From: a virus
Taxonomy: Duplodnaviria; Caudoviricetes
DNA: 40,686 nucleotides
Direction: 5' to 3' (one strand)
Virus record (IMG/VR): IMGVR_UViG_3300031965_000075
Coordinates: 1-40,686 of that record
Part shown: piece after piece, positions 7,414 to 38,110 of the stretch
Numbering within the stretch: the first letter of the stretch is position 1
How the letters are laid out: each line of letters starts with the position of its first letter
Notes under the pieces: model-generated
Told to the model about the DNA's origin: nothing
Database searches by the model: none
What the model saw: only the letters and a program-made list of their open reading frames with translations
Made by a program: the position numbers and the translations under genes

Positions 7414-7970
7414 GCGAAGCCGATCCCGACTGGCATGAGCTCACTGATGAGGGCGTTGCGCTGGTCCTGGTAGCCCTCCTGCCCGCCGCTGCGGGCGCCC
7501 ATCGACTCCTCGGCATAGTCGCCATCGCGGCGCGAGTCGAGCCCGGAGAACTGGAGCGCCAGCTTGACCAGGTCGACCACCACGCGGTCGTAGCGGTCAC
7601 TGGCGGGCGCCGCGTCGTAAGTCACGCTGATCAGGCCGGACCAGCCGACCCGGTATCCGGTAGAGAGACGTTCCAGGAAGGCGCCGCCCGGGCGCAGCCG
7701 GTAGCCGTCGTCGTCCTCGTCGAGCTCGACGTCGTCCTCGAGGACCTCGAGGATCGTGGAGGCCGGCGGGTCGAGCTCAATCAGGAGCTGGCGCGTCCCA
7801 ACCGCGTTGAGCAGGACATCAGTCCGCGGCCCCAGACCACGCGCGGCGATCTCGTCGACGGCGGCCCTGCCATACGACGCCAGATCGGCGTCGAGCAGGT
7901 CGGTTTCCACGCCACGGGCGCGCAGGGCGGCCGCCACGGTTGCGTCGGCCGCAGTCCAGTCGATGGCCAT
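7410..7970 (-). CDS. Head-tail adaptor/connector protein
   Basis: Start MAIDW at 7970 (TGATG). 'I.VTY.A', 'S...GDY.E' and position after the capsid region. Confidence 0.7.
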   Translation of the reverse strand: MAIDWTAADATVAAALRARGVETDLLDADLASYGRAAVDEIAARGLGPRTDVLLNAVGTRQLLIELDPPASTILEVLEDDVELDEDDDGYRLRPGGAFLERLSTGYRVGWSGLISVTYDAAPASDRYDRVVVDLVKLALQFSGLDSRRDGDYAEESMGARSGGQEGYQDQRNALISELMPVGIGFA

Positions 7971-8959
7971 CAGGCGACCGCCTCGAGCGCCTGGGCGCCG
8001 ATGGTGCGCCGGTAGAGGGCCACCAGGCGCTCCAGCGCCGGCTGCTGCGCATGGAAGCGCGCGACGTGCTCCATGCCACGCACGGCCCACTCGGCGCGCA
8101 GCTGGGCGCTCTGCACCAGCTCACGCAGGGCATCGAGCAGCCCGGCCTCGGTCATCTCGTAGAAGGGGAGTACACCGAATTCGCTCAGCATCCGGTTGCG
8201 GGTGGAGGCCGGGATCGGATGGTTGACCTCCGCCGCCCGCTCCGGGTCGATGCCGGCGATGACCGGCAGTCCCATGCCCCAGGCCTCGATCGCGTTGCAG
8301 CCGTAGCCGAGATACAGCTGGTCGAAGTAGATGTCGGCGCTCGCCTTCCGACGCAGGCATGCCGCCCAGGTCGTGCGCTCGATGAGGTCGAGCTCCACCC
8401 GCAGCCCCTCGTCCTGCAGTGCGACCACGGCCGCCACCAGGGCGTCGGTGCTCTTCAGGGTGCGCATGGTCGGTGCATGCGCGATACGCACCACGCCGTC
8501 ATCGGTCCGGCGGTGGGCGCGGCGCAGCGCGGCCAGCGCGTCGAGGTCGTAGGCGGTCGGCAGCCAGGTGATGACGTCCGGCGCGAGCTCGACCAGGTCG
8601 ACCGTACTGGCAGCCTGCACCCAGCCTTCGCGGGCGGCACGCGCTAGGAGCAGCGGGGGGTTGGTGCGGAAGGCGGAGCCGTGATGGTGCAGCAGCACCG
8701 GCTTGGCGCCCACGTCGGCGAAGAGCTCGAACCCCTGCGCCCGGTTGTTGAGGTGGATGATGTCGGCCTCGGCCCACAGACGCCGGATCGCGCCGGCGTT
8801 GTTGGCGTACAGGATGTCCACCGGCAGGTGCTTGAAGGAGTGCGTGCTGCGGGTCACCGCCCGGATGGCAGCGCCGCCATGGCGATCGGCAGCGGCCTTG
8901 TAGCGCAGCGCCTCGCCGTTGGGGTCGGTGCCCATCGAGAAGATCAGCGAGCGGATCAC
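7970..8959 (-). CDS. Glycosyltransferase, GT-B/GT4-like
   Basis: Real start is GTG 8959 (overlaps upstream stop). ADIIHL, 'HHHGS.FR', 'RIAHAPT...K.T' and 'ADIYFDQL..GYG.NAIEAWGMGLPV' match a GT4-type C-terminal signature. Confidence 0.85.
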   Translation of the reverse strand: MIRSLIFSMGTDPNGEALRYKAAADRHGGAAIRAVTRSTHSFKHLPVDILYANNAGAIRRLWAEADIIHLNNRAQGFELFADVGAKPVLLHHHGSAFRTNPPLLLARAAREGWVQAASTVDLVELAPDVITWLPTAYDLDALAALRRAHRRTDDGVVRIAHAPTMRTLKSTDALVAAVVALQDEGLRVELDLIERTTWAACLRRKASADIYFDQLYLGYGCNAIEAWGMGLPVIAGIDPERAAEVNHPIPASTRNRMLSEFGVLPFYEMTEAGLLDALRELVQSAQLRAEWAVRGMEHVARFHAQQPALERLVALYRRTIGAQALEAVA

Positions 8960-9669
8960 TGGATCGCCACCCGCGCCGCCTCGACCAGTGCCGGCGCGTA
9001 GTGCTCGGCCAGCTGCTGCCAGGGGTCGCGGTGCTCCTCGACACCCCAGTAGTACCAGAGCTTGGCGTAGGTGGTCAGATGGGGCTCCCCGCGGAAGCTG
9101 ACGTGCTGGAAGCGATTGAGGTCGCGCAACTCCCAGACCACCTCGCCGGCGAGACCATTGACCGTCGAGCGGTCGATGTTGCGGTTGATGAGGTCCTTGG
9201 CCGGACGAAAACCAGACCGCTCGAGCTGCGCGCGGTGCAGCATGTACGGGCCGCCGCCGTGGTTCGGCTTGATCTCCAGGTGCGCCAGCCGGTCGCGCGT
9301 CACGGTGCACAGGTAGGTCGAGGTGCGCACCGCGCCATCGGCCGGCAGAGGTGCGAAGTAATCCGCCTGGACCCACGAGTCGGAGCCCACTGGCACGACC
9401 ACGTCGGCCCCGTGCTTGCCGGCGTACTCCATGCCGTCGTTGAAACGGCGCGCGAGCCATTCGTTGTTCTGCTCGAGCGTGTCGAAGCCAGCCGCGCGGG
9501 CCAGCTCGAGGTTCTCGTCGTCAGCCACGACCACGCAGTGGGCCTCGATGTCCATGCTGGCGAGCTCGTCTATCACCTGGCGGCGCTGCTCGAAGCACAC
9601 AGCGGATAGCGCGAACCGTCGCCACGAAGGGGTGACGAACCACAACTGGGTGACGGTCCGCTTCGCCAC
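8956..9669 (-). CDS. Glycosyltransferase, GT-A/GT2-like
   Basis: N-terminal 'WFVTPSWRR', 'VVVADD', and 'N..LA.RFN.G.......ADVVVPVGSDSWV' (DxD-equivalent). Confidence 0.7.
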   Translation of the reverse strand: MAKRTVTQLWFVTPSWRRFALSAVCFEQRRQVIDELASMDIEAHCVVVADDENLELARAAGFDTLEQNNEWLARRFNDGMEYAGKHGADVVVPVGSDSWVQADYFAPLPADGAVRTSTYLCTVTRDRLAHLEIKPNHGGGPYMLHRAQLERSGFRPAKDLINRNIDRSTVNGLAGEVVWELRDLNRFQHVSFRGEPHLTTYAKLWYYWGVEEHRDPWQQLAEHYAPALVEAARVAIQ

Positions 9670-9940: not shown

Positions 9941-11251
9941 TCAGGTGCTGGCCGGAGCCCACTCGCTGAGGGTGATCTCGACAAAAGCGCCCGGGAAGTA
10001 GATCGGGAAGGCGATCCGCTTCTCGAACAGGACCACCGCCAGGTTGCGGATGAAGAAGTCCGAGTGCTGCTCCGCCACGCGGATGGTCAGAGGCTCGCGA
10101 TCGAAGATCGTGGCTCCTGCCCGTCCGCCGACCAGGGCGGTGCCCTCGGCCATCGCCTCCGACTCGACCCGTGGCAGCCGCCAGATAGGCGGTGAGTCCG
10201 GTCCGCCCGTGGCGAACGGGTCACCGGCCCGGTAGCGGCCATCGTTGTCCTTGAGGAAGTCGAACTCCTCGGAGTCGACCGGATGGACGATGACGAAAGT
10301 CGGCGGGATGCGGCCCGTGCCGGTGCGCGCCAGGCGCCGCGCCGTCCGCACACCCTCCAGGTTGGCGAGATCGCCGAGCCCGGTGAGGTTGAGCGTCTGG
10401 AGCCCGGTATTCTGGTCGTCCAGAATCCCGATCAGGTCCGGCGCGGTGCCGTCTCCGTTGAGGAACTGGTCCTCTTCGGCGAGGTCGAGCATCAACGACC
10501 CCTGGTTGTCGATCAGGGACCGAATCTGGTTGACGTCGGACAGCGCCTGACGGGTGACCGCCATCCAGGTCGCGATCCAGGTGGCGCGCGCGGTGCGCTC
10601 CTCGAGGCGAATGCTGGACTGCGGCTTCAGGCCCGCCGCATCGGTGGCACTGGTGGACTGAGCGACTGCAGCCGCCGCGTTGTCGAAGCCGACCTGCGCG
10701 ACGTACTCGATCGTGTCGCCCGACGGCATGTTCTCGTTGGCGAACAGGCTACGGACGGTCAGCGGTCGCTGCGCCAGCGGCAGGATGCCGGGCTGGCGGA
10801 AGGTCGGCACAACCTCGGACCCGCCGGAGCCGGTGTGCACGACATCGGTCGCCGCGGCACCGAAGCGCGTGCGACGGCTACCGACCACGACCGGGCCGGA
10901 GTCGAACTTCGAACCGGGCACGAGCAGGCTGGAGTTGCCGATCACAGCCTTGAACTCCGCCGACTCGACGAACTGCTCGCCCGGAGTCTTCTGGGACTTG
11001 CCGTCGATCTCGGCACTGGCGAAGCTCAGCGGCTGGCCGCCGGCCTGGCCCTGGTACCACTGAAGGCGATCCTCCAGCTTCTCGGCGTTGCCCTCGCGAT
11101 CCGCCTGCTCCGCATATGCCGCGTCGGCCGCGACGAACTCGGCGGTCAGAGCGTCGAGCTTCTCAGGATCCGCGTCCTCGCGTTCCTGGTAGGCCTTGAC
11201 CTCCAACCCCTTGGCGAGCGCCTGCTCGCGCAACTCTACTGCCTTAGACAT
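9941..11251 (-). CDS. Major capsid protein (HK97 fold)
   Basis: Start MSKAVELRE at 11251 after GAGAGG. Coiled-coil delta domain, 'IATW....RQAL.D', 'EEDQFLNGDGT..LIGI' and 'DFFIRN.....EKR'. Confidence 0.95.
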   Translation of the reverse strand: MSKAVELREQALAKGLEVKAYQEREDADPEKLDALTAEFVAADAAYAEQADREGNAEKLEDRLQWYQGQAGGQPLSFASAEIDGKSQKTPGEQFVESAEFKAVIGNSSLLVPGSKFDSGPVVVGSRRTRFGAAATDVVHTGSGGSEVVPTFRQPGILPLAQRPLTVRSLFANENMPSGDTIEYVAQVGFDNAAAAVAQSTSATDAAGLKPQSSIRLEERTARATWIATWMAVTRQALSDVNQIRSLIDNQGSLMLDLAEEDQFLNGDGTAPDLIGILDDQNTGLQTLNLTGLGDLANLEGVRTARRLARTGTGRIPPTFVIVHPVDSEEFDFLKDNDGRYRAGDPFATGGPDSPPIWRLPRVESEAMAEGTALVGGRAGATIFDREPLTIRVAEQHSDFFIRNLAVVLFEKRIAFPIYFPGAFVEITLSEWAPAST

Positions 11252-12476
11252 GGCCGGATACCTCTCTTCGAACGTGGGAAGTCGCGAGCGCAGCACTGGC
11301 CCGTGCGGCGGCAAGCCGCATGGGATGGGGTGGGCTCGCGTCGGCCTCCTCCGGCTCGTCCGTATCGAGGTCCGTAGCAACGGGATCGCTCACATCGAGC
11401 GGGGTGAGAGCAGCCAGCTGCTCCCGGGCCTGGGCGGAGAGGGGTCGTCCCTCCTTCGCCCGTAGTCGCTCACGCTCTCGGTAGTGCGCGATCATTCGGT
11501 CACGCTCCGAATCCCAGAGCGCGGCCTGCTCGTGAATGGGAAGGGTGGCCATGAGGGCCGAGATCGCCTCCGGCACCGGCAGCAGCCCGGCTGCAGCCAG
11601 GAAGCTGGGGTTGGCGCCGTTGGCCTTGAGAATCATCTGGTGCACGGTGGCGTCCAGCGTTTCGACGCGATCGACGAGACCCGCCGTCTTGGCCTTCTTG
11701 GCGGTGAAGACATCCGCTTTCCAGCCGCTGATGACCTGGGTGGCTTTCACGCCCCGGCCCGCGGCGACGTCGCCCACGAAGAGGGCGTAGTAGTCGTCGG
11801 CGATGCCCTGCAGCTCGGCACGGCCCTCGTCGGAGAGGGGCAGATGCTCGTTGCCGTCGGCCTTGCCGGCGCCGGCGGTGATGAGCGTGACCTTGACGCC
11901 CTCCATCTCGTCCGCCTTCGAGACGTCGTGGTGCATGCCGATGATCCCGACCGAGCCGACGATCGCGGAGGGGCTGCCGATCACCTCGTCGGCCTGGCTG
12001 CCGATCCAGTAGGCGGCGCTGGCCATCGTCGGGTTGGCGACGGCCGCCATCGGCTTGACACCGCGGGCAGAGCGGATCTCGGTGGCCAGTTCGGTGATGC
12101 CATCGACCGATCCACCAGGCGAGTCGATGTCGAACACGATGGCGCCGACATCCGGATCCGCCATGGCCTCGCGGAAGTCGCGGGTGATGCCCTCGACGCT
12201 GGTGCCGCCCGACATGGCGGTCATCAGGTTCAGGCGCTGCGTGATGACGCCGTAGATGGGGATGACGGCCACGCCCTGTGCCCGGAGGCCACCGCGACGT
12301 GGTCCGTTGTCAGCAGCTGCGACCCGGGCCTCGATCTCCTCGTCGGTGAAGGGGGCGCCGGCCGCGCGCAGGCGCACGATCTCCTCGATCACGGCCAGCA
12401 TGGCCGGCTGTAGGGCCCACGGGCGCTCGTAGACCGCCTTCGTGATCTGGGTGTAGCGGCGAGTCGGAGCGGACAT
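11244..12476 (-). CDS. Prohead protease, S49 (SppA/ClpP-like) family
   Basis: DIDSPGG, MASAAYWIGSQAD, VGSVG, 'A...GLVD.V'; GGAGG RBS before ATG 12476. Confidence 0.93.
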   Translation of the reverse strand: MSAPTRRYTQITKAVYERPWALQPAMLAVIEEIVRLRAAGAPFTDEEIEARVAAADNGPRRGGLRAQGVAVIPIYGVITQRLNLMTAMSGGTSVEGITRDFREAMADPDVGAIVFDIDSPGGSVDGITELATEIRSARGVKPMAAVANPTMASAAYWIGSQADEVIGSPSAIVGSVGIIGMHHDVSKADEMEGVKVTLITAGAGKADGNEHLPLSDEGRAELQGIADDYYALFVGDVAAGRGVKATQVISGWKADVFTAKKAKTAGLVDRVETLDATVHQMILKANGANPSFLAAAGLLPVPEAISALMATLPIHEQAALWDSERDRMIAHYRERERLRAKEGRPLSAQAREQLAALTPLDVSDPVATDLDTDEPEEADASPPHPMRLAAARASAALATSHVRREVSGHV

Positions 12477-12481
12477 AAAAC

Positions 12482-12513
12482 GGACCTCCAAGCCATGGGG
12501 CTCGAAGGTCCTC
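12482..12513 (-). promoter_or_regulatory. SD-sequestering RNA hairpin with tandem GAGNNCC motifs
   Basis: The mRNA GGACCUUCGAGCC-CCAU-GGCUUGGAGGUCC forms 13 contiguous pairs (2 G-U) and contains the GGAGG of the protease gene. GAGGACC (12513-12507) and GAGCCCC (12503-12497) overlap the 5' arm and loop. Confidence 0.75.
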
Positions 12514-12604
12514 TGTCGATGTGCGGACTACCGCTCGGTGGCGATTCTGCCGCGCTGTCTTCTGTTGCGGGAAACTCTACACGACGCTGTCAACTCGCGC
12601 AGCG

Positions 12605-13990
12605 CTAGATCACGCCAGCGGCCTTCTCGACACGGGTGATTGCCGCCGCGATCAGTGGGTGCTCGATGAGCTCGCCGCCGACGGAGGACGTCCCTCCAAT
12701 CACGGCAATACTGCCGGCAGCCACAGGGCGGGCGATGCTCGTTACGGCGGGAATGCTCTCTCCGCCAGCCGTCAGGTGCGCGACCCCGGCGCCGGTTGCG
12801 GTGAGGATCCCTGAGCGAGCGGTAGACAGGACTGCCGTCAGGACCCCGCCACCGCTCCACAGAGCCGCACCTAGACGAGCGCTTTCGACCGACAGCGTGC
12901 CGGCACCTGCGCCAGTCGCCTCAATGACGGCACGGCGGCCCGTCATGGCGGCGAACGTTGAGACACCGCCGCCGGTTGCGGCAAGGGTGCCACTGTGGCT
13001 CTCGACTGAGCCACCCACCAACGTCGCAACGCCGCCACCGGTCGCGGTCAGGACACCAATCCGAGAGGTGGTCTCGGCGACGGTAAACTCTCCAGCGCCT
13101 GTCGCGGCGAGTATCGCTCGGCGGCCAGACTCGAAGCTGTATGTGACCATACCGCCGCCAGTGACGACCATCGCTGCCGAGCGGCTGGTCGTGAGCACCA
13201 AGGATGCGACTCCGCCGCCAGTCGTCGCCAGCGTTCCCTGCCGAGCGGCGACGGACTCGATAGTCGCCACGCCTCCGCCGGTTGCGAGTAGGTCCATAGT
13301 CCTGGCAGTCGTGGCCTCGAAGGACGCCACGCCTCCGCCTGTCGCAACCAGCGTGCCGGCGTGCTCCTCGCCGCCTTCGCTCGTCTCATACGCGAACGTG
13401 GCGACCCCACCGCCGGTGGCGGTGATTGTGGCCGGGCGATCAGTGATCGTATCGGCGGCGAATGCGCCGCCGCCGGTCGCAGCTATGGCGGAACTGCGGG
13501 CGGTGACCGCTGCCGAGGTGAATACGCCTGCGCCCGTCCCGGCGATCAGGCTCCGGGCGCCCTTCTCCCCCGAGGTCGTGAGCACGCCGCCGCCCGTACC
13601 GACGAGTGTGCCCGAGTGCTCCTCGGCGCCAGCGGCCACTTCAACCGTCTGGGTGGCCGAGAGAACGGTGTAGCTGCCGCCCGAGACAGGGGCTCCGACC
13701 ATGCGGATGGTGTAGGAGCCTGCTTCGTCGCAGGTGACGGTGATGCTCTTCTGCGCGGTCCCGTTGCTGTTGATGACCGGGTTGGTATCCGCCGTGATGA
13801 GGCCCGTGCCCGAGGCCCCGATAGTCACATACCCGCCGCCGTCATTGACCTCCCACTTAAAGTCGTAACGCTGAACCCCACCCGTGCCAGTGAATCCGGG
13901 CGTACCGGAGAAGGCGAAGGTGTCACTGATCGCCGCCGAGACTGGCGAGGCCGGCGCATCACGACTGATGCTGGTGAGGACCTTAGCCAT
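12605..13990 (-). CDS. Gly/Thr/Ala-rich repeat protein, putative virion fibre/decoration
   Basis: 461 aa: beta-rich Ig-like N-terminus (~120 aa) followed by 14 copies of a ~20 aa (T/S)G(G/A)G repeat. Confidence 0.65.
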   Translation of the reverse strand: MAKVLTSISRDAPASPVSAAISDTFAFSGTPGFTGTGGVQRYDFKWEVNDGGGYVTIGASGTGLITADTNPVINSNGTAQKSITVTCDEAGSYTIRMVGAPVSGGSYTVLSATQTVEVAAGAEEHSGTLVGTGGGVLTTSGEKGARSLIAGTGAGVFTSAAVTARSSAIAATGGGAFAADTITDRPATITATGGGVATFAYETSEGGEEHAGTLVATGGGVASFEATTARTMDLLATGGGVATIESVAARQGTLATTGGGVASLVLTTSRSAAMVVTGGGMVTYSFESGRRAILAATGAGEFTVAETTSRIGVLTATGGGVATLVGGSVESHSGTLAATGGGVSTFAAMTGRRAVIEATGAGAGTLSVESARLGAALWSGGGVLTAVLSTARSGILTATGAGVAHLTAGGESIPAVTSIARPVAAGSIAVIGGTSSVGGELIEHPLIAAAITRVEKAAGVI

Positions 13991-13993
13991 GGG

Positions 13994-14365
13994 CTAGGCG
14001 TCGTTCAAATCGAGCGATGATCCTGCTGCGGTGACGGTATATGTCCCTTGGGCCCCGAACGCCTCGTCGGTGACGTCCTTCTTGAGGTAGCGGACGGTGC
14101 CGGCGGTGTTCCACAGCGACAGCCACGAGACGGTCGTGGCGGCCGGGATGTCGACCACCACATCGCCGTTCTGCGCGGCAGCACCGGCAGCGGCTGCACC
14201 CCACGCGATCGCCTTGCGGGCATAGGCCGGGGAGCCGCCCGAGACCTCGTTATCCGCAGCGTTCGCCGCGCCGGGATCGCCCGTGTGCGCCGCCACGCGG
14301 ACGGCGACCGTCGCCAGCTGATTCAGCATGACGTTCTTGGCTTCTGCGTCGTAATCGTTGGCCAC
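13994..14365 (-). CDS. Small virion structural protein (fibre adaptor-like)
   Basis: 123 aa. 'HTGDPG.....NEVSGG..YARK.I.W' pattern, common in phage structural/fibre-associated proteins; GGAG RBS. Confidence 0.65.
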   Translation of the reverse strand: MANDYDAEAKNVMLNQLATVAVRVAAHTGDPGAANAADNEVSGGSPAYARKAIAWGAAAAGAAAQNGDVVVDIPAATTVSWLSLWNTAGTVRYLKKDVTDEAFGAQGTYTVTAAGSSLDLNDA

Positions 14366-14377
14366 CTGAGTCTCCTT

Positions 14378-15886
14378 CTAGGCTGCGGCCATCTCGCCGC
14401 ACTTCGAGCACTTGATCTCGACGGCACCCGGTGGCGTCGAAGCATCCCGCTTGGCGAGGAGGCGATTGCAGCCGGTGCATCGCACCTCGGACGACATGGC
14501 CAGCAGAGGCACTGGCTCGACCACGGCCGCCCCGTTCCCTCCGGGCAGGGCGAGTTGCCCGCGGGGGGGTTGATTCCCCCCAGCGGACACGGCGACGTAG
14601 TTGTTGGGCATGATGTAGACGTCGTCGGTGGGCTCTACCAGGAGGCCGACCGCGCGCTTGAAGTCCGAGCGCATGACCAGCCCCTTGGTGGCGGCGCCTT
14701 CGTAGCGCTTCCAGACGGCGTCGGCGAACGCCTGCATGGCCGCGACCCGGCGCCAGTCGAACCAGACATCGAGCTGCTCGCGCTCGATCTGGTCCTTCGA
14801 TGCGAACTCCGGCAGAAGCTGCACCTCGAGCTCGGCCGCGAAGAGGCGGTGGAGCGGGATGACACCCTCGGTGTAGGCGGCCACGCGCGCCTCGCCGTAG
14901 TTGGTGAATGTATTTCTGTCGAGCCCGGCGCCCAGCTGCGCGACGCCGGCGGGCACGTGGAGGTTGGCCGAGATGCGCTCCTCGGGGATCCGGCGCAGGG
15001 CCTTGAGGTCCATCTCCTGCGGCGACCAGGACAGCACCTTGATCTCGGTCGGCGCGGTCATCACCATCGGCTCGCCACGCTTGTCGCCGCCGAAGGTCTC
15101 CTTGAACTTCTGCTTCACGGACTCGGCATCGATCTTGCCGGGGGCCAGCCCGGTATTCGCCGGCGCCAGGATCACACCCGGCACCCCGAGGTTACGCAGC
15201 ATGGAGGCCGTGAAGTTCGCCGCCTCGTCGTCGGTGAAGATCTCGCGGAAGAGCGGCTCCAGCTGGTCGCGCCCCTTGCGCGGGTTGAGCGGATTCAGTC
15301 CGTTGCGGAAGTGAACGATGTTGCGCTTCTTGATCGCGTAGGCGACTCCGTCGACGGTGTACTGGTACCACTCGATGAAGGAGGTCGAGTCGCGCTCGTC
15401 CCACTTCGGCTCGACCATGAAGGCGGGCAGCCACCAGAGGGCGATGACGCGACCCGAGCGGTTGCGGACCTTCATCCAGTACGCATCGCCGCGGATGTAG
15501 TCCACGATGGTCGCCATCCACTGCAGGACGCCGGAGTAGACCTCGTTCGGCTTCTCGAGCAGCCGCAGCATCGCGCCTGGTCCGGTAGCGGCCGGCGGAT
15601 AGGCGATCTCGACCGTGTCCTGGTGGATGATGCGGACCGGTGCCTCGGGGAAGTTGGTGGCGATCCAGCCCACCACGGCGCCGACCGCACTGTTCTTCAG
15701 CGGGTCGCCGACCTCGGACCGGTAGTCGAAGCGCGTTCGGTTGAGGAGGAGCGACCAGGCGGACCGCGTGCGGAAGATGACCGATGACAGCGTCGCGGCG
15801 GCGCCGTTGAGCGCGCCGAAGCTCACGCGACCCACGCCGCGGGCCGCCGCGCCGATGGGTGTGCGATTGAGGGCGGTCAGGTCCAT
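14378..15886 (-). CDS. Portal protein with C-terminal Com-like zinc finger
   Basis: Start MDLTALN at 15886 after AGGAG. HK97-type portal motifs (LL.KPN, 'G.AYW.K.RN..G.V..LW.L', 'IVHFR', NLGVPG). Ends in RCTGCNRLLAK...VEIKCSKCG. Confidence 0.92.
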   Translation of the reverse strand: MDLTALNRTPIGAAARGVGRVSFGALNGAAATLSSVIFRTRSAWSLLLNRTRFDYRSEVGDPLKNSAVGAVVGWIATNFPEAPVRIIHQDTVEIAYPPAATGPGAMLRLLEKPNEVYSGVLQWMATIVDYIRGDAYWMKVRNRSGRVIALWWLPAFMVEPKWDERDSTSFIEWYQYTVDGVAYAIKKRNIVHFRNGLNPLNPRKGRDQLEPLFREIFTDDEAANFTASMLRNLGVPGVILAPANTGLAPGKIDAESVKQKFKETFGGDKRGEPMVMTAPTEIKVLSWSPQEMDLKALRRIPEERISANLHVPAGVAQLGAGLDRNTFTNYGEARVAAYTEGVIPLHRLFAAELEVQLLPEFASKDQIEREQLDVWFDWRRVAAMQAFADAVWKRYEGAATKGLVMRSDFKRAVGLLVEPTDDVYIMPNNYVAVSAGGNQPPRGQLALPGGNGAAVVEPVPLLAMSSEVRCTGCNRLLAKRDASTPPGAVEIKCSKCGEMAAA

Positions 15887-18024: not shown

Positions 18025-18798
18025 TCAATACGGCACCGTCTCGTAGTCGAACAACGGTTCCGGCAAGCCCGGCACGTCGTCTTCCTGACCTGTCCGCTCC
18101 AGGACCATGACCCGATCGTTGCAGAATGCTCGACCAGCGAGGATATGCTTCTCATCGCGCAGCAGACAGCGGTGCTCGATCTCGTAGTAGGCACCGAGCG
18201 GGTGCTGAGGAAGGACCGGCTGATGTCCTTCTGGCCCGTGCCACATCCACACCCGGCGCCCGTTTTTCATGGCGCTGTACCACCAGTGCAGGGTTTCGAC
18301 GCGCAGCCCGGGCAGCGGACGGAAGAAGTGGGGGATGGCGGATCGCTGCCCAGCCACCTTCCGATGCCAGTTGGTGGCGAACGGCTGTCTGCTCGGCGGC
18401 GTGTAGAGCGTGACGCTGACGACATCAACGTCGGGGCCGTAGCTCGCCAGCTCCGCGCGAGCGGCTTCTCGATCGGCATGGATGCGCCAGTCCGCGTCGA
18501 CGATCACGATCCAGTCGGCCCCGAGCGCTGCGCGAGTCAAGGCGAACGTGCGCTTTTCGACCTGGCCAGCCCACAGGCGCTCCGGCACGTGGACCTCGCA
18601 ATCCACTCCGAGCTCGGCCGCGGTGGTGCGGATCGCGTCCGCCTGCTCAGATGGGCTCGCCACATTGGCATCGGGATAGCGGCGGTAGGCACCGTCAACC
18701 GCGACCAGTCGATCAGCGATCTCGGCCACACCCCGCACGCAGATCGCGAGGTCCTCCGGCCTCTCGTCATACCAGATCAGGGCGGCAGTTATGACCAT
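18025..18798 (-). CDS. Glycosyltransferase, GT-A/GT2-like (paralogue 2)
   Basis: AL.WYDE, 'VAVDGAY', 'QVEKR' and 'DWIVIVDAD' (DxD). Confidence 0.8.
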   Translation of the reverse strand: MVITAALIWYDERPEDLAICVRGVAEIADRLVAVDGAYRRYPDANVASPSEQADAIRTTAAELGVDCEVHVPERLWAGQVEKRTFALTRAALGADWIVIVDADWRIHADREAARAELASYGPDVDVVSVTLYTPPSRQPFATNWHRKVAGQRSAIPHFFRPLPGLRVETLHWWYSAMKNGRRVWMWHGPEGHQPVLPQHPLGAYYEIEHRCLLRDEKHILAGRAFCNDRVMVLERTGQEDDVPGLPEPLFDYETVPY

Positions 18799-19580
18799 CA
18801 GAAGGGCAACGTGCGGTAGTCGAAGATAGGTTCCGGCAGCCCAGGCAGATCGTCTTCCTGGCCCGTCTGCTCAACGATCATGGTGCGATCGTTGCAGAAG
18901 GCCCGGCTGGCGAGTACCCGCTCCTGATCTCGGAATAGACAGCGGTGCTCGACCTCATAATGGGCGGTGAGCTCGGCAGCGGGCAGCCCCGGCCCGGAGT
19001 CGTCATGGATGACCCACACCCGCTCACCGTCCTTCACTCCGCTGACGTGCCAGTGGCGCTTCTCGACGCGCAGCCCGGGAAGGGCCCGGAAGAGCAAGCG
19101 GTGCCGGTCGGCGCGCCCGGAGCTGCGGCGGTGCCAATCGGTCGGCGCGCTGTCGTCGAGCGGCCTGGCCTCGTTGAGCGGAACGGGGTATGGCGCCGTG
19201 ATGACGTCCACGCTCTCGGGCAAACTGGCCAGCTCCGCTCGGACAGCCTCGCGATCGGCATGCACGATATGGTCGGCATCGACGACCACGATCCAGTCCG
19301 AGGCGACGGCAGCCATCGACAGAAGGTAGGTGCGTTTCTCGATCTGACCCGCCCACAGCCTGTCGGGTGCCAGGATGAGGCAGGCCAAGCCGACCTCGGC
19401 GGCGGTGCGACGGATAGCCTTCGCCTGATTCGTTGGGCTGGTGACGGTCGCCTGCGGATGGCGGCGGTAGGCACCATCCAGGGCCACGACGCGATCAGCG
19501 ATGTTCGCCATACCGCGCACGCACTCGATCAAGTCCGCAGGGCGCTCGTTCCACCAGCACAAGGCCGCGGTCACGATCAT
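18798..19580 (-). CDS. Glycosyltransferase, GT-A/GT2-like (paralogue 1)
   Basis: Start MIVTAAL at 19580. Same motifs (VALDGAY, QIEKR, DWIVVVDAD); collinear with its neighbour. Confidence 0.8.
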   Translation of the reverse strand: MIVTAALCWWNERPADLIECVRGMANIADRVVALDGAYRRHPQATVTSPTNQAKAIRRTAAEVGLACLILAPDRLWAGQIEKRTYLLSMAAVASDWIVVVDADHIVHADREAVRAELASLPESVDVITAPYPVPLNEARPLDDSAPTDWHRRSSGRADRHRLLFRALPGLRVEKRHWHVSGVKDGERVWVIHDDSGPGLPAAELTAHYEVEHRCLFRDQERVLASRAFCNDRTMIVEQTGQEDDLPGLPEPIFDYRTLPF

Positions 19581-19632
19581 GCGACGGCCTCCGCCCGGTA
19601 GCATGCCACCGCCGACGAGTCCCGCTCGATGG

Positions 19633-20520
19633 TCATTTCGATGGGCTCAGGTGACTGAATGTCTCGGTGACGCCGTGCTGCTGGTACCAGGCCACCGCCT
19701 TGGCGATGCCCTCCTCCAGCGTCGTGCGGGCAGTCCATCCGAACTCACGCTTCGTCTCGGACGGATCCAGTAGCAGGGTGGCCACGTCATCCGGTCTACG
19801 CGGGATGACCTCGGGGTCCGGCACCTCCGCGCCCATTGCCGACCGCACCGCAGCGAAGACCTCAGCGATGCTGTAGTCCGACCCTGACGAGACGTGATAG
19901 ACGCCATGGCCTTGGCTGGCTGCGTTGACTGCCACCCAGACCAGGTCATCGACGTACACGAAGTCCCGTCGGCTATCGACAACCGTGCAGGGCTTTCCTT
20001 CGGTCAGACGCTGGTAGAAGGTCGGGATCGGACCTGACAGGTTGCGCGGGCCGTAGATGTTGGCCAGTCGGAGGGAGACGTAATCCAGCCCGGAGTCGCG
20101 GATGTAGCCCTCGCCGGCCGTCTTGCTGACCGGGTAGGAGCCGTGCGGATCGAGCGCCGCATCCACCCGCACTGGGCTGTGGGGATGGGTGCCGTAGCAC
20201 AGCGAGGTCTGGAAGTAGATCAGCCTGGCGTTCGAGCGCAATGCCGCGCGGACGACTTCGATGGTGCCCAGCACGTTGGTCCGGGCGTCCTGCTCCCACG
20301 CTCCGCGATCTCGGTACGACGCGGCGCAGTGATAGACGAGATCGAAGGACTCTCCCGGCAGGTCGGTCAGGATGTCTCCGACGATCAGCTCGCCGGGGTA
20401 GTTGTCGGCGCGGCCGGTCGAGAGGTTGTCGATGCCGACCACCTCGTGCCCGTGGTGCAGCATCGCCTCGGCCAACCGCGATCCGATGAAGCCCGCAGCC
20501 CCGGTGATGAGGACCTTCAT
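19633..20520 (-). CDS. NAD-dependent nucleotide-sugar epimerase/dehydratase (extended SDR, WbmG/WbmH-like)
   Basis: Start MKVLITGAAGFIG at 20520. YPVSK catalytic motif. 'H.AASY.D...W..D..TN', 'IYFQTSLCYG' and 'RLANIYGPRNLSGPIPTFYQRL' recall the WbmH-like subgroup. Confidence 0.9.
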   Translation of the reverse strand: MKVLITGAAGFIGSRLAEAMLHHGHEVVGIDNLSTGRADNYPGELIVGDILTDLPGESFDLVYHCAASYRDRGAWEQDARTNVLGTIEVVRAALRSNARLIYFQTSLCYGTHPHSPVRVDAALDPHGSYPVSKTAGEGYIRDSGLDYVSLRLANIYGPRNLSGPIPTFYQRLTEGKPCTVVDSRRDFVYVDDLVWVAVNAASQGHGVYHVSSGSDYSIAEVFAAVRSAMGAEVPDPEVIPRRPDDVATLLLDPSETKREFGWTARTTLEEGIAKAVAWYQQHGVTETFSHLSPSK

Positions 20521-21359
20521 GCCACCGCCGCCTGACGGTCCCTGAACATGTCGTACCACCAGCGCCGGTCCCACGGGGTCCCCGGGTCGGGCAGGTAGCC
20601 GATCCGGTCGCCGACGAAGCCACGCACCGGCTCCCGCTGCGCCCACAGCGCATAGGGCGCGGGGAAGCCCATCTTGTCGGTGCGGTCGATGATGGCGGCG
20701 GGCACGATGCCGCGCACGGCCTCGCGCAGGTGGCGCTTTCCGACCCGCTGGCGCGGGGGAAGGGCCAGCGCGTAGGCGACGATGGACTGATCGGTGAAGG
20801 GTGCCCGCGCCTCGATCCCGTGGGCAGCGCACATCTGATCGTCCACGGCCAGCAGGTCAGGCAGGCGCTCGAGGTCCCATGCCAGCGCCGCGGCGAGATC
20901 GTGCACAGGGTAGCCGGGCGGGACCTGGTAGTGCTCGTAACCGTCCATCGGGGGCTCACCGGCCGCGATCAGGGTGCGGGCGTAGCCACCGAACAGCTCG
21001 TCGCTGCCCTCTCCGGACAGCATGATCGCGATGCCCTGCGCCGCGGCGAAGCGGGCCACCATGTACTGCCCGAAGGTGCCCATCCCCTGGATCGGAGGCC
21101 GGACGTGGGCTGCCATCGCATCGAAGTGCTCGACGAAGTCCTCCGGGGTGATCTGGATCTCGTGGTGCTGGCCCGCACCGACCAGGCGAGCAAAGCGCCG
21201 CTCGTCGAAGCCGGGCTCGTCGTACCAGCCGGTGAAGGTCGGGAAGGGCGCGGCGATGGCCGTCACGGTGGAGGAGTCCAGGCCGCCCGACAAGGCGATG
21301 CCGGTGTGCGGACCGATGCGCGCCTCGACAGCATGCCGGATCAGGTTGACCAGTCTCAT
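20517..21359 (-). CDS. Asparagine synthase-like ATP-dependent amidase (synthetase domain only)
   Basis: LSGGLDSS PP-loop, LSGEGSDELFGGY, GIEARAPF, KMGF; no N-terminal Cys-1 glutaminase domain (280 aa). Confidence 0.9.
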   Translation of the reverse strand: MRLVNLIRHAVEARIGPHTGIALSGGLDSSTVTAIAAPFPTFTGWYDEPGFDERRFARLVGAGQHHEIQITPEDFVEHFDAMAAHVRPPIQGMGTFGQYMVARFAAAQGIAIMLSGEGSDELFGGYARTLIAAGEPPMDGYEHYQVPPGYPVHDLAAALAWDLERLPDLLAVDDQMCAAHGIEARAPFTDQSIVAYALALPPRQRVGKRHLREAVRGIVPAAIIDRTDKMGFPAPYALWAQREPVRGFVGDRIGYLPDPGTPWDRRWWYDMFRDRQAAVA

Positions 21360-37919: not shown

Positions 37920-38110
37920 GGGCCGAGGAGAGGGCGAAGGCCTCCTCCAGCAGTTCCAGAAAGGTTGGCTCGGTGCTCACGGGGCTCCCCTCCGCTCCGG
38001 CTCTCATTAGCGTCTCGGGCCGGCTGAGACGGTTGCCTCGTCGAGGGCTCTGCATCGTCGGCGGAGGGCGTGACAGGTAGGGTGTCTGGCACCGATAGGG
38101 GAGGACGCAG

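Follow-up and report, generated by a model that had tools for sequence, protein, structure and literature searches.

The closest described counterpart of the element analysed here is Com of phage Mu. Com proteins are free proteins of 39-62 residues that control an adjacent DNA-modification gene, which is mom in Mu, and the cysteines of Mu Com are C6, 9, 26 and 29 (accessible text of PMC3299994). According to the accessible text of PMC6483171, the Com target defined by SELEX has the consensus GAG(N)2CC(N)2-3GAG(N)2CC, binding takes place on CC(N)2-3GAG in a short loop closed by a C-G pair, and Arg8, Asn13, Lys14 and Arg31 form the basic patch of the protein. The stretch of DNA studied here, IMGVR_UViG_3300031965_000075, is the record of an uncultured Caudoviricetes virus (40,686 nucleotides (nt), about 90% complete; hereafter the window) and carries a Com-family zinc finger as the C-terminus of its HK97-type portal protein. 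Judging from the sequence, the finger, while attached to the portal, probably acts as a Com-type translational activator of the head protease gene, with capsid output following.

With Mu Com and mom the locus shares the Cys4 zinc ribbon of PF10122, the consensus motif and the hexaloop hairpin format (PMC6483171 and PMC3299994, as far as accessible), as well as an overlap of the motif with an inhibitory hairpin and frequent weak start codons, such as the GUG of mom. It differs in that a virion protein ends in the finger, which lacks the Com tail, in that the likely target, the protease, lies 0.1-11 kb away, and in that this gene stands behind a separate promoter-like element. The portal-borne finger is a Com-family member and would work like Mu Com on mom, but it is not a free Com. 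In phage P22 the scaffolding protein likewise serves head assembly and, through the pool left unassembled, influences expression, in that case by repressing its own, whereas here a dedicated RNA-binding domain on the portal likely activates another gene. The pRNA of phage phi29 is likewise an RNA associated with the portal vertex, where it is a part of the packaging motor, whereas here the RNA would be an mRNA leader and the finger would face the capsid interior. Com-like control outside mom is suspected in Pseudomonas, in which stand-alone com-like genes precede bacteriocin, lysis and glycosyl-hydrolase genes; these encode free proteins with non-structural targets, and the accessible text of PMC6240691 mentions no fusion and calls a wider Com-like role unexplored. 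The literature on Com biology and on portal or zinc-ribbon fusions, covered mainly through titles and summaries of accessible papers with supplements excluded, yielded no description of a portal-Com fusion, and the accessible parts of PMC3299994 and PMC6240691 deal only with free com genes.

Residues 67-406 of the portal match the HK97-type portal family of Pfam, and the protein scores 60 bits against TIGR01537, below the equivalog cut-off of 112. AlphaFold2, run with a 119-row alignment, predicts a portal core, a disordered linker (residues 434-464) and a finger that folds as its own unit, and the core of this model resembles gene transfer agent (GTA) and HK97 portals (6toa, 8cez and 8fql in Foldseek). 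An earlier reading made from the letters of the window (the sequence-only reading) had proposed that a Gly/Pro linker leads into a CxxC..CxxC finger of Com kinship at the portal end. The profile search bears this out: PF10122 (Zn_ribbon_Com) covers residues 465-498 and scores 23.9 bits against the full-length portal and 29.3 bits against the tail alone, over a cut-off of 22.9. Among PHROGs, the finger matches 'translational regulator' (1e-7) and 'gpCom' (1e-4), and 13 of 26 aligned fingers have PF10122 as their best-scoring family (E<=0.01). The spacing between the cysteine pairs is 3 residues longer than in Mu Com, and R469, N474, R475 and K495, placed by cysteine spacing without alignment to that protein, occupy the positions of the Com basic patch. 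The window contains no free Com gene, the portal tail being the sole PF10122 match in the 40.7-kb record.

The fusion is widespread among relatives (labelled L for DNA loci and P0002-P0120 for rows of portal homologues). The search found 505 portal homologues, of which the best 120 were taken, or 119 after one fragment was dropped. A strict CxxC..CxxC tail is present in 52/120, a finger profile built from these strict tails matches 83/120, and a wider rule finds the finger on 86/119; the fusion is in frame in these 86, which rules out an assembly or frameshift artefact. The same tail is found on far-diverged PF04860 portals, in a finger-only scan and in later scans. The fused rows fall in four lineages of a 117-row portal tree, in which well-supported branches force at least 4 changes; this tree was thinned from 236 rows with all 20 fused rows kept and made by a quick method, has long branches and leaves the direction of change undetermined. 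One source's automatic name for P0059 already lists both domains. The portal has matches in 231 records of cultured phages, all below 60% identity, and the finger is reached in none of the 15 matches listed; the finger alone gives 6 weak matches there, one of them annotated as translational regulator Com.

The other half of the element is the leader of the protease gene. The 128-nt gap at 12604-12477 is the only long one between terL and the capsid gene and holds, as the sequence-only reading had it, a 13-base pair (bp) hairpin predicted to bury the protease GGAGG. The 56-nt segment with this hairpin has a z-score of -5.6, with 0/200 shuffles as stable, and the opening energy of the protease ribosome site, 22.6 kcal/mol, exceeds that of every other position among the 12 tested in the window. 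The tandem GAGNNCC-like site named in that reading agrees with the SELEX consensus in the accessible text of PMC6483171, and 12513-12497 fits this consensus exactly. Since such a tandem motif is expected by chance 0.59 times per window, its position and conservation carry the weight. A second strict GAGNNCC tandem at 37987 on the minus strand, just after a GGAGG, has no Com stem, is within chance and was set aside. The loop strand of the proximal motif (CCUUC) is the one that pairs with the Shine-Dalgarno in the 13-bp hairpin, so the small (ON) and large (OFF) hairpins are mutually exclusive. The fusion, the Com family match and the motifs are visible at the level of sequence, and the OFF hairpin over the protease ribosome site is a predicted fold. 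No Rfam family reaches its gathering score in the window and six loci (0 matches).

Beyond the features of the sequence-only reading, the locus has a second Com-type hairpin, two accessory genes between portal and leader, and a promoter-like element, from which (12593-12574) a separate transcript of the head genes probably starts. A comparable element precedes 15/16 leaders, with a spacer of 8 nt in 5 and of 17-19 nt (mostly 18) in 10; a standard sigma-70 scan finds no promoter at the leader because it requires a spacer of 16-18 nt. The 8-nt and 18-nt forms occur at the same site, one helical turn apart (L001 11415, L089 13745, L092 11923 and L404), and a near-identical relative in run X3, read by eye, seems to have the 18-nt form. 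Over high-GC loci a spacer of 8 is a second peak, with 12 cases versus 2-6 at neighbouring lengths.

The presence of the finger and the presence of the leader are linked. In the portal clade with S49 proteases (26 rows, near-duplicates included), all 6 fused rows have the leader, with gaps of 330-4418 nt, whereas 17 of the 20 finger-less rows have the protease at -18 to +32 nt from the portal stop and no leader. The opening energy of the ribosome site is 13.6-22.6 kcal/mol in 10 fused loci, each found with a protein query, while 70 others have a median of 8.1 (p = 4e-7), in a set that omits 11 duplicates, rows with less than 110 nt upstream or without a recognisable site, and one locus with a stand-alone finger; the highest of the others is L384, whose sequence begins 150 nt before the protease, with the portal tail out of view. 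Half of the fused loci (5/10) have a TTG protease start, versus 0/70 of the others. Occlusion of at least 13 kcal/mol is found in 14/14 fused loci and 3/76 finger-less ones, figures that are weakened by a threshold set after the data had been seen and by 4 of the 14 fused loci having been picked by leader features. All 7 phylogenetically independent pairs agree on finger and occluded site (7/7, p=0.016). The leaders of L318 and L316 are likewise occluded, that of L316 (read by eye) preceding a small gene before the protease; the fused loci L002, L096, L086/L319, L320 and L322 have no protease in the available sequence and stand outside the scoring. A reverse search of IMG/VR with the leader only, by a pattern built from the leaders of the window, L001 and L378, gave four matches, and all of them (4/4, 2 new) lie downstream of finger-fused portals. 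The downstream gene is an S49 protease in some loci and an S78 protease in L404, and the likely target is the protease whatever its family; in L323, L324 and L406, where Pfam gives no protease match, the gene was called a protease on the basis of inspection and similarity.

The leaders also resemble each other in their architecture. In all 14 the 3' arm contains a GGAGG-type site shortly before the start codon, and the C-G closing pair is in register in 13/14 when they are anchored on the Shine-Dalgarno partner alone. A short C-G-closed loop with CC(N)2-3GAG occurs twice in the window and at least once in 11/12 fused leaders, and, the descriptor being loose, also in 18/86 other leaders, which counts against activation by the attached finger. 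The anchored loop ends in GA with 5/6 Lys/Arg-type fingers and with 1/8 Glu-type fingers, a contrast reduced by two of these five GA-type loci having been chosen by the GA pattern. A GU-type DNA pattern gave at least 120 matches, mostly chance, with one leader of a known locus and one stand-alone module, and a further GU-type pattern gave 53 matches with two already known leaders and no new fused locus. The expected survey result came out in part: co-occurrence of finger and leader stood, while covariation of the proximal ON hairpin, at 66.1% paired versus 65.5%, is not above shuffles and tells against the proposed switch. In the small hairpin 2 pairs have two-sided changes, with 32/500 shuffles equally high. 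A tail without a Com match, or fingered homologues without the leader, had been named as outcomes contrary to the proposal; the tail matches PF10122 and all the scored leaders of fused loci are occluded.

Table. Features of the head module in the window (start..end; all on the minus strand; pLDDT, predicted local distance difference test)
Feature	Position	Strand	Basis
HK97-type portal gene, 502 residues, with C-terminal finger	14378..15886	-	PF04860, E 1e-34; Foldseek
Gly/Pro-rich linker, residues 434-464, predicted disordered	14495..14587	-	pLDDT <50 at 434-440 and 442-464
Com-family Cys4 zinc ribbon, C470/C473/C493/C496; protein ends Ala-Ala-Ala	14378..14494	-	PF10122 above cut-off; pLDDT 75-89
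Intervening accessory gene, 123 residues, Gp80-like	13994..14365	-	PF23140
Intervening accessory gene, 461 residues, Gly/Thr/Ala repeats	12605..13990	-	no Pfam, NCBIfam or PHROG match
Promoter-like element: TTGACA, 8-nt spacer, TAnnnT box	12574..12593	-	only such minus-strand site
Com-type hairpin 1, with a C-N3-GA loop on a 5-bp stem with C-G as closing pair	12530..12545	-	format of the Mu site; same in L001
Com-type hairpin 2, a tandem GAGNNCC-N3-GAGNNCC motif with the anti-Shine-Dalgarno strand as its loop	12497..12513	-	SELEX consensus match
13-bp hairpin burying GGAGG (12489-12485), short U-rich tail after it	12482..12511	-	predicted fold; terminator-like flag
S49 prohead protease gene, likely target	11244..12476	-	PF01343
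Major capsid gene, own GAGG site	9941..11251	-	PF05065

A host-type promoter at 12593 would yield a separate head transcript, which is predicted to fold into the OFF form by pairing of the upstream CCUUC strand with the Shine-Dalgarno. This same strand is the proximal Com-type loop, and the finger, made only as a portal tail, would capture the Com hairpins during transcription, aided by the pair of sites and possibly by the 12-mer ring, so that the ribosome site stays free. Translation of the capsid gene would follow through the overlap of the protease stop with the capsid start, which the sequence-only reading had noted and which spans 8 nt, or through relief of polarity. The outcome would be a portal-first ordering cascade, and a shut-off by burial of the finger in proheads is a conjectural extra step.

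Several observations weigh against activation by the attached finger. Only 6 residues follow its last cysteine, so that the disordered C-terminal tail of Com is absent, and this argues against activation because the tail may be needed for melting (PMC6483171, accessible text); ComHia has only 39 residues (PMC3299994, accessible text), so the Com tail is not universal. The proximal ON hairpin of the window has an A-C mismatch, and the ON fold, when forced, reaches -23.7 versus -41.1, a cost of about 17 kcal/mol at equilibrium. As this likely exceeds the supply of one small finger, co-transcriptional capture or multivalent binding must be assumed. The leader of L321 has no Com-format hairpin, the capsid ribosome site of the window is accessible by itself (opening energy 8.5 kcal/mol), and a GTG with a Shine-Dalgarno-like stretch sits 14 codons before the finger in the portal gene.

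A further reading can be advanced only tentatively, and we hold it to be somewhat doubtful: the intact portal ring may be an mRNA-binding assembly sensor, whose twelve fingers hold on to both Com hairpins. Protease and capsid would then be produced only at the time and place at which free portal is present, and synthesis would cease when proheads enclose the fingers or when these are degraded by way of their Ala-Ala ends. This checkpoint reading would follow if the C-terminal finger lies on the side of the capsid interior, as the fold match suggests, where assembly would hide it from mRNA; in HK97 the portal crown faces the capsid interior (bioRxiv 10.1101/2023.02.24.529869, accessible text). 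The data agree with a plain ordering cascade, with antitermination or with a released finger no less than with a stoichiometry checkpoint.

An Ala-Ala C-terminus is found in 67/86 fingered portals and 3/33 finger-less ones, with only 5 independent pairs (p = 0.125). Its excess in fingered portals (window 14378-14386; P0002-P0120) is partly explained by gene overlaps of the GCATGA type, and the large terminase of the window likewise ends in Ala-Ala. Ala-Ala is a C-terminal degron of Clp proteases, and in fingered portals it is a possible degradation tag for unassembled portal through such a protease.

That the active regulator on the same RNA is a free finger, made by proteolysis or from an internal start, with the fusion serving only co-expression and the portal sensing nothing, is unlikely. 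Prohead proteases cleave portals in phage lambda, the linker is long and disordered by pLDDT, the GTG mentioned above is one candidate start, and in related phages stand-alone finger genes precede head genes, several with tandem repeats or hairpins. However, no internal start is conserved: a Met within 14 residues occurs in just 12/80 tails and starts before the finger are not enriched (3/19 loci versus 12/128 background windows); cutting by the regulated protease itself would require a prior leak, and the fusion is retained in four lineages and in both finger subtypes.

It is rather improbable that terminating or pausing transcription is the main role of the hairpin, with the finger as antiterminator for the whole head-tail transcript and the ribosome-site burial as a second layer. 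The hairpin of the window does pass a terminator scan, a loose one that also yields 4.7 sites in shuffles, the 8 nt before the start hold a mean of 3.7 T in 14 fused leaders versus 1.2 in 86 others (p = 1e-7), and L253, which has a stand-alone finger, shares the motif and has a U-rich tail of greater length. In most leaders, however, the U-run after the stem is short (2-4 nt), and a pure terminator needs no GGAGG-type site in its 3' arm, which all 14 fused leaders have. A finger serving as a structural or DNA-contacting appendage of the portal crown, with the hairpin an unregulated damper that keeps the protease low and with no link between them, agrees with a crown that faces packaged DNA (bioRxiv 10.1101/2023.02.24.529869, accessible text) and with a fold search of the finger alone that gave generic zinc ribbons only, none at E<=0.001, but it is very improbable, as it leaves the joint gain and loss of finger and leader, the reverse-search matches, the two Com-format sites and the link between finger subtype and loop unexplained.

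The two accessory genes that separate portal from leader differ in L001, a close relative, and in run X3 one contig connects 14380 with 12570, leading from the portal stop straight to the leader with the accessory block absent. The stretch between portal and leader (window 12605-14365) is a variable cassette, with 0.1 to about 11 kb of differing genes in relatives. Sugar-modification-like genes flank the head module on the minus strand (18028-21359 and 7970-9669), namely an NAD-dependent epimerase, an asparagine-synthase-like protein and a weak glycosyltransferase match, and possibly serve capsid glycosylation.

The finger also occurs in other arrangements. In some portals it is followed by an additional Pro/Val-rich extension, which ends in a conserved acidic-basic motif R..RD..GRI.G (L316 3731-5650, L318 1632-3425, L320 1439-3034, L322 1304-3082 and L319 7369-9180; also P0038). 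In lower-identity relatives, stand-alone finger genes stand before head genes (L021 10959-11090, L146 4886-5020, L157 10833-10982, L132 9273-9410, L033 and L138), and behind several of them lie tandem repeats that differ along with the finger. A small gene with several cysteine pairs lies behind the finger-fused portal of L323 (2891-3721) and possibly encodes a second, free zinc-ribbon protein.

If activation by the attached finger is true, a conserved virion protein doubles as a sequence-specific gene regulator, and assembly order is wired into translation. The HK97 capsid protein builds correct shells without portal, and nucleation by the portal is a hypothesis (PMC10275583, accessible text). 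How each head obtains a single portal is still argued, and the module, a 40-residue domain and a 100-nt RNA, offers a testable route to this question; if the ring is a sensor, HK97-type phages would have a genetic means of keeping heads without a portal from forming. Orthogonal protein-RNA pairs of the Com-like kind may be available from the two finger subtypes with their GA and GU loops.

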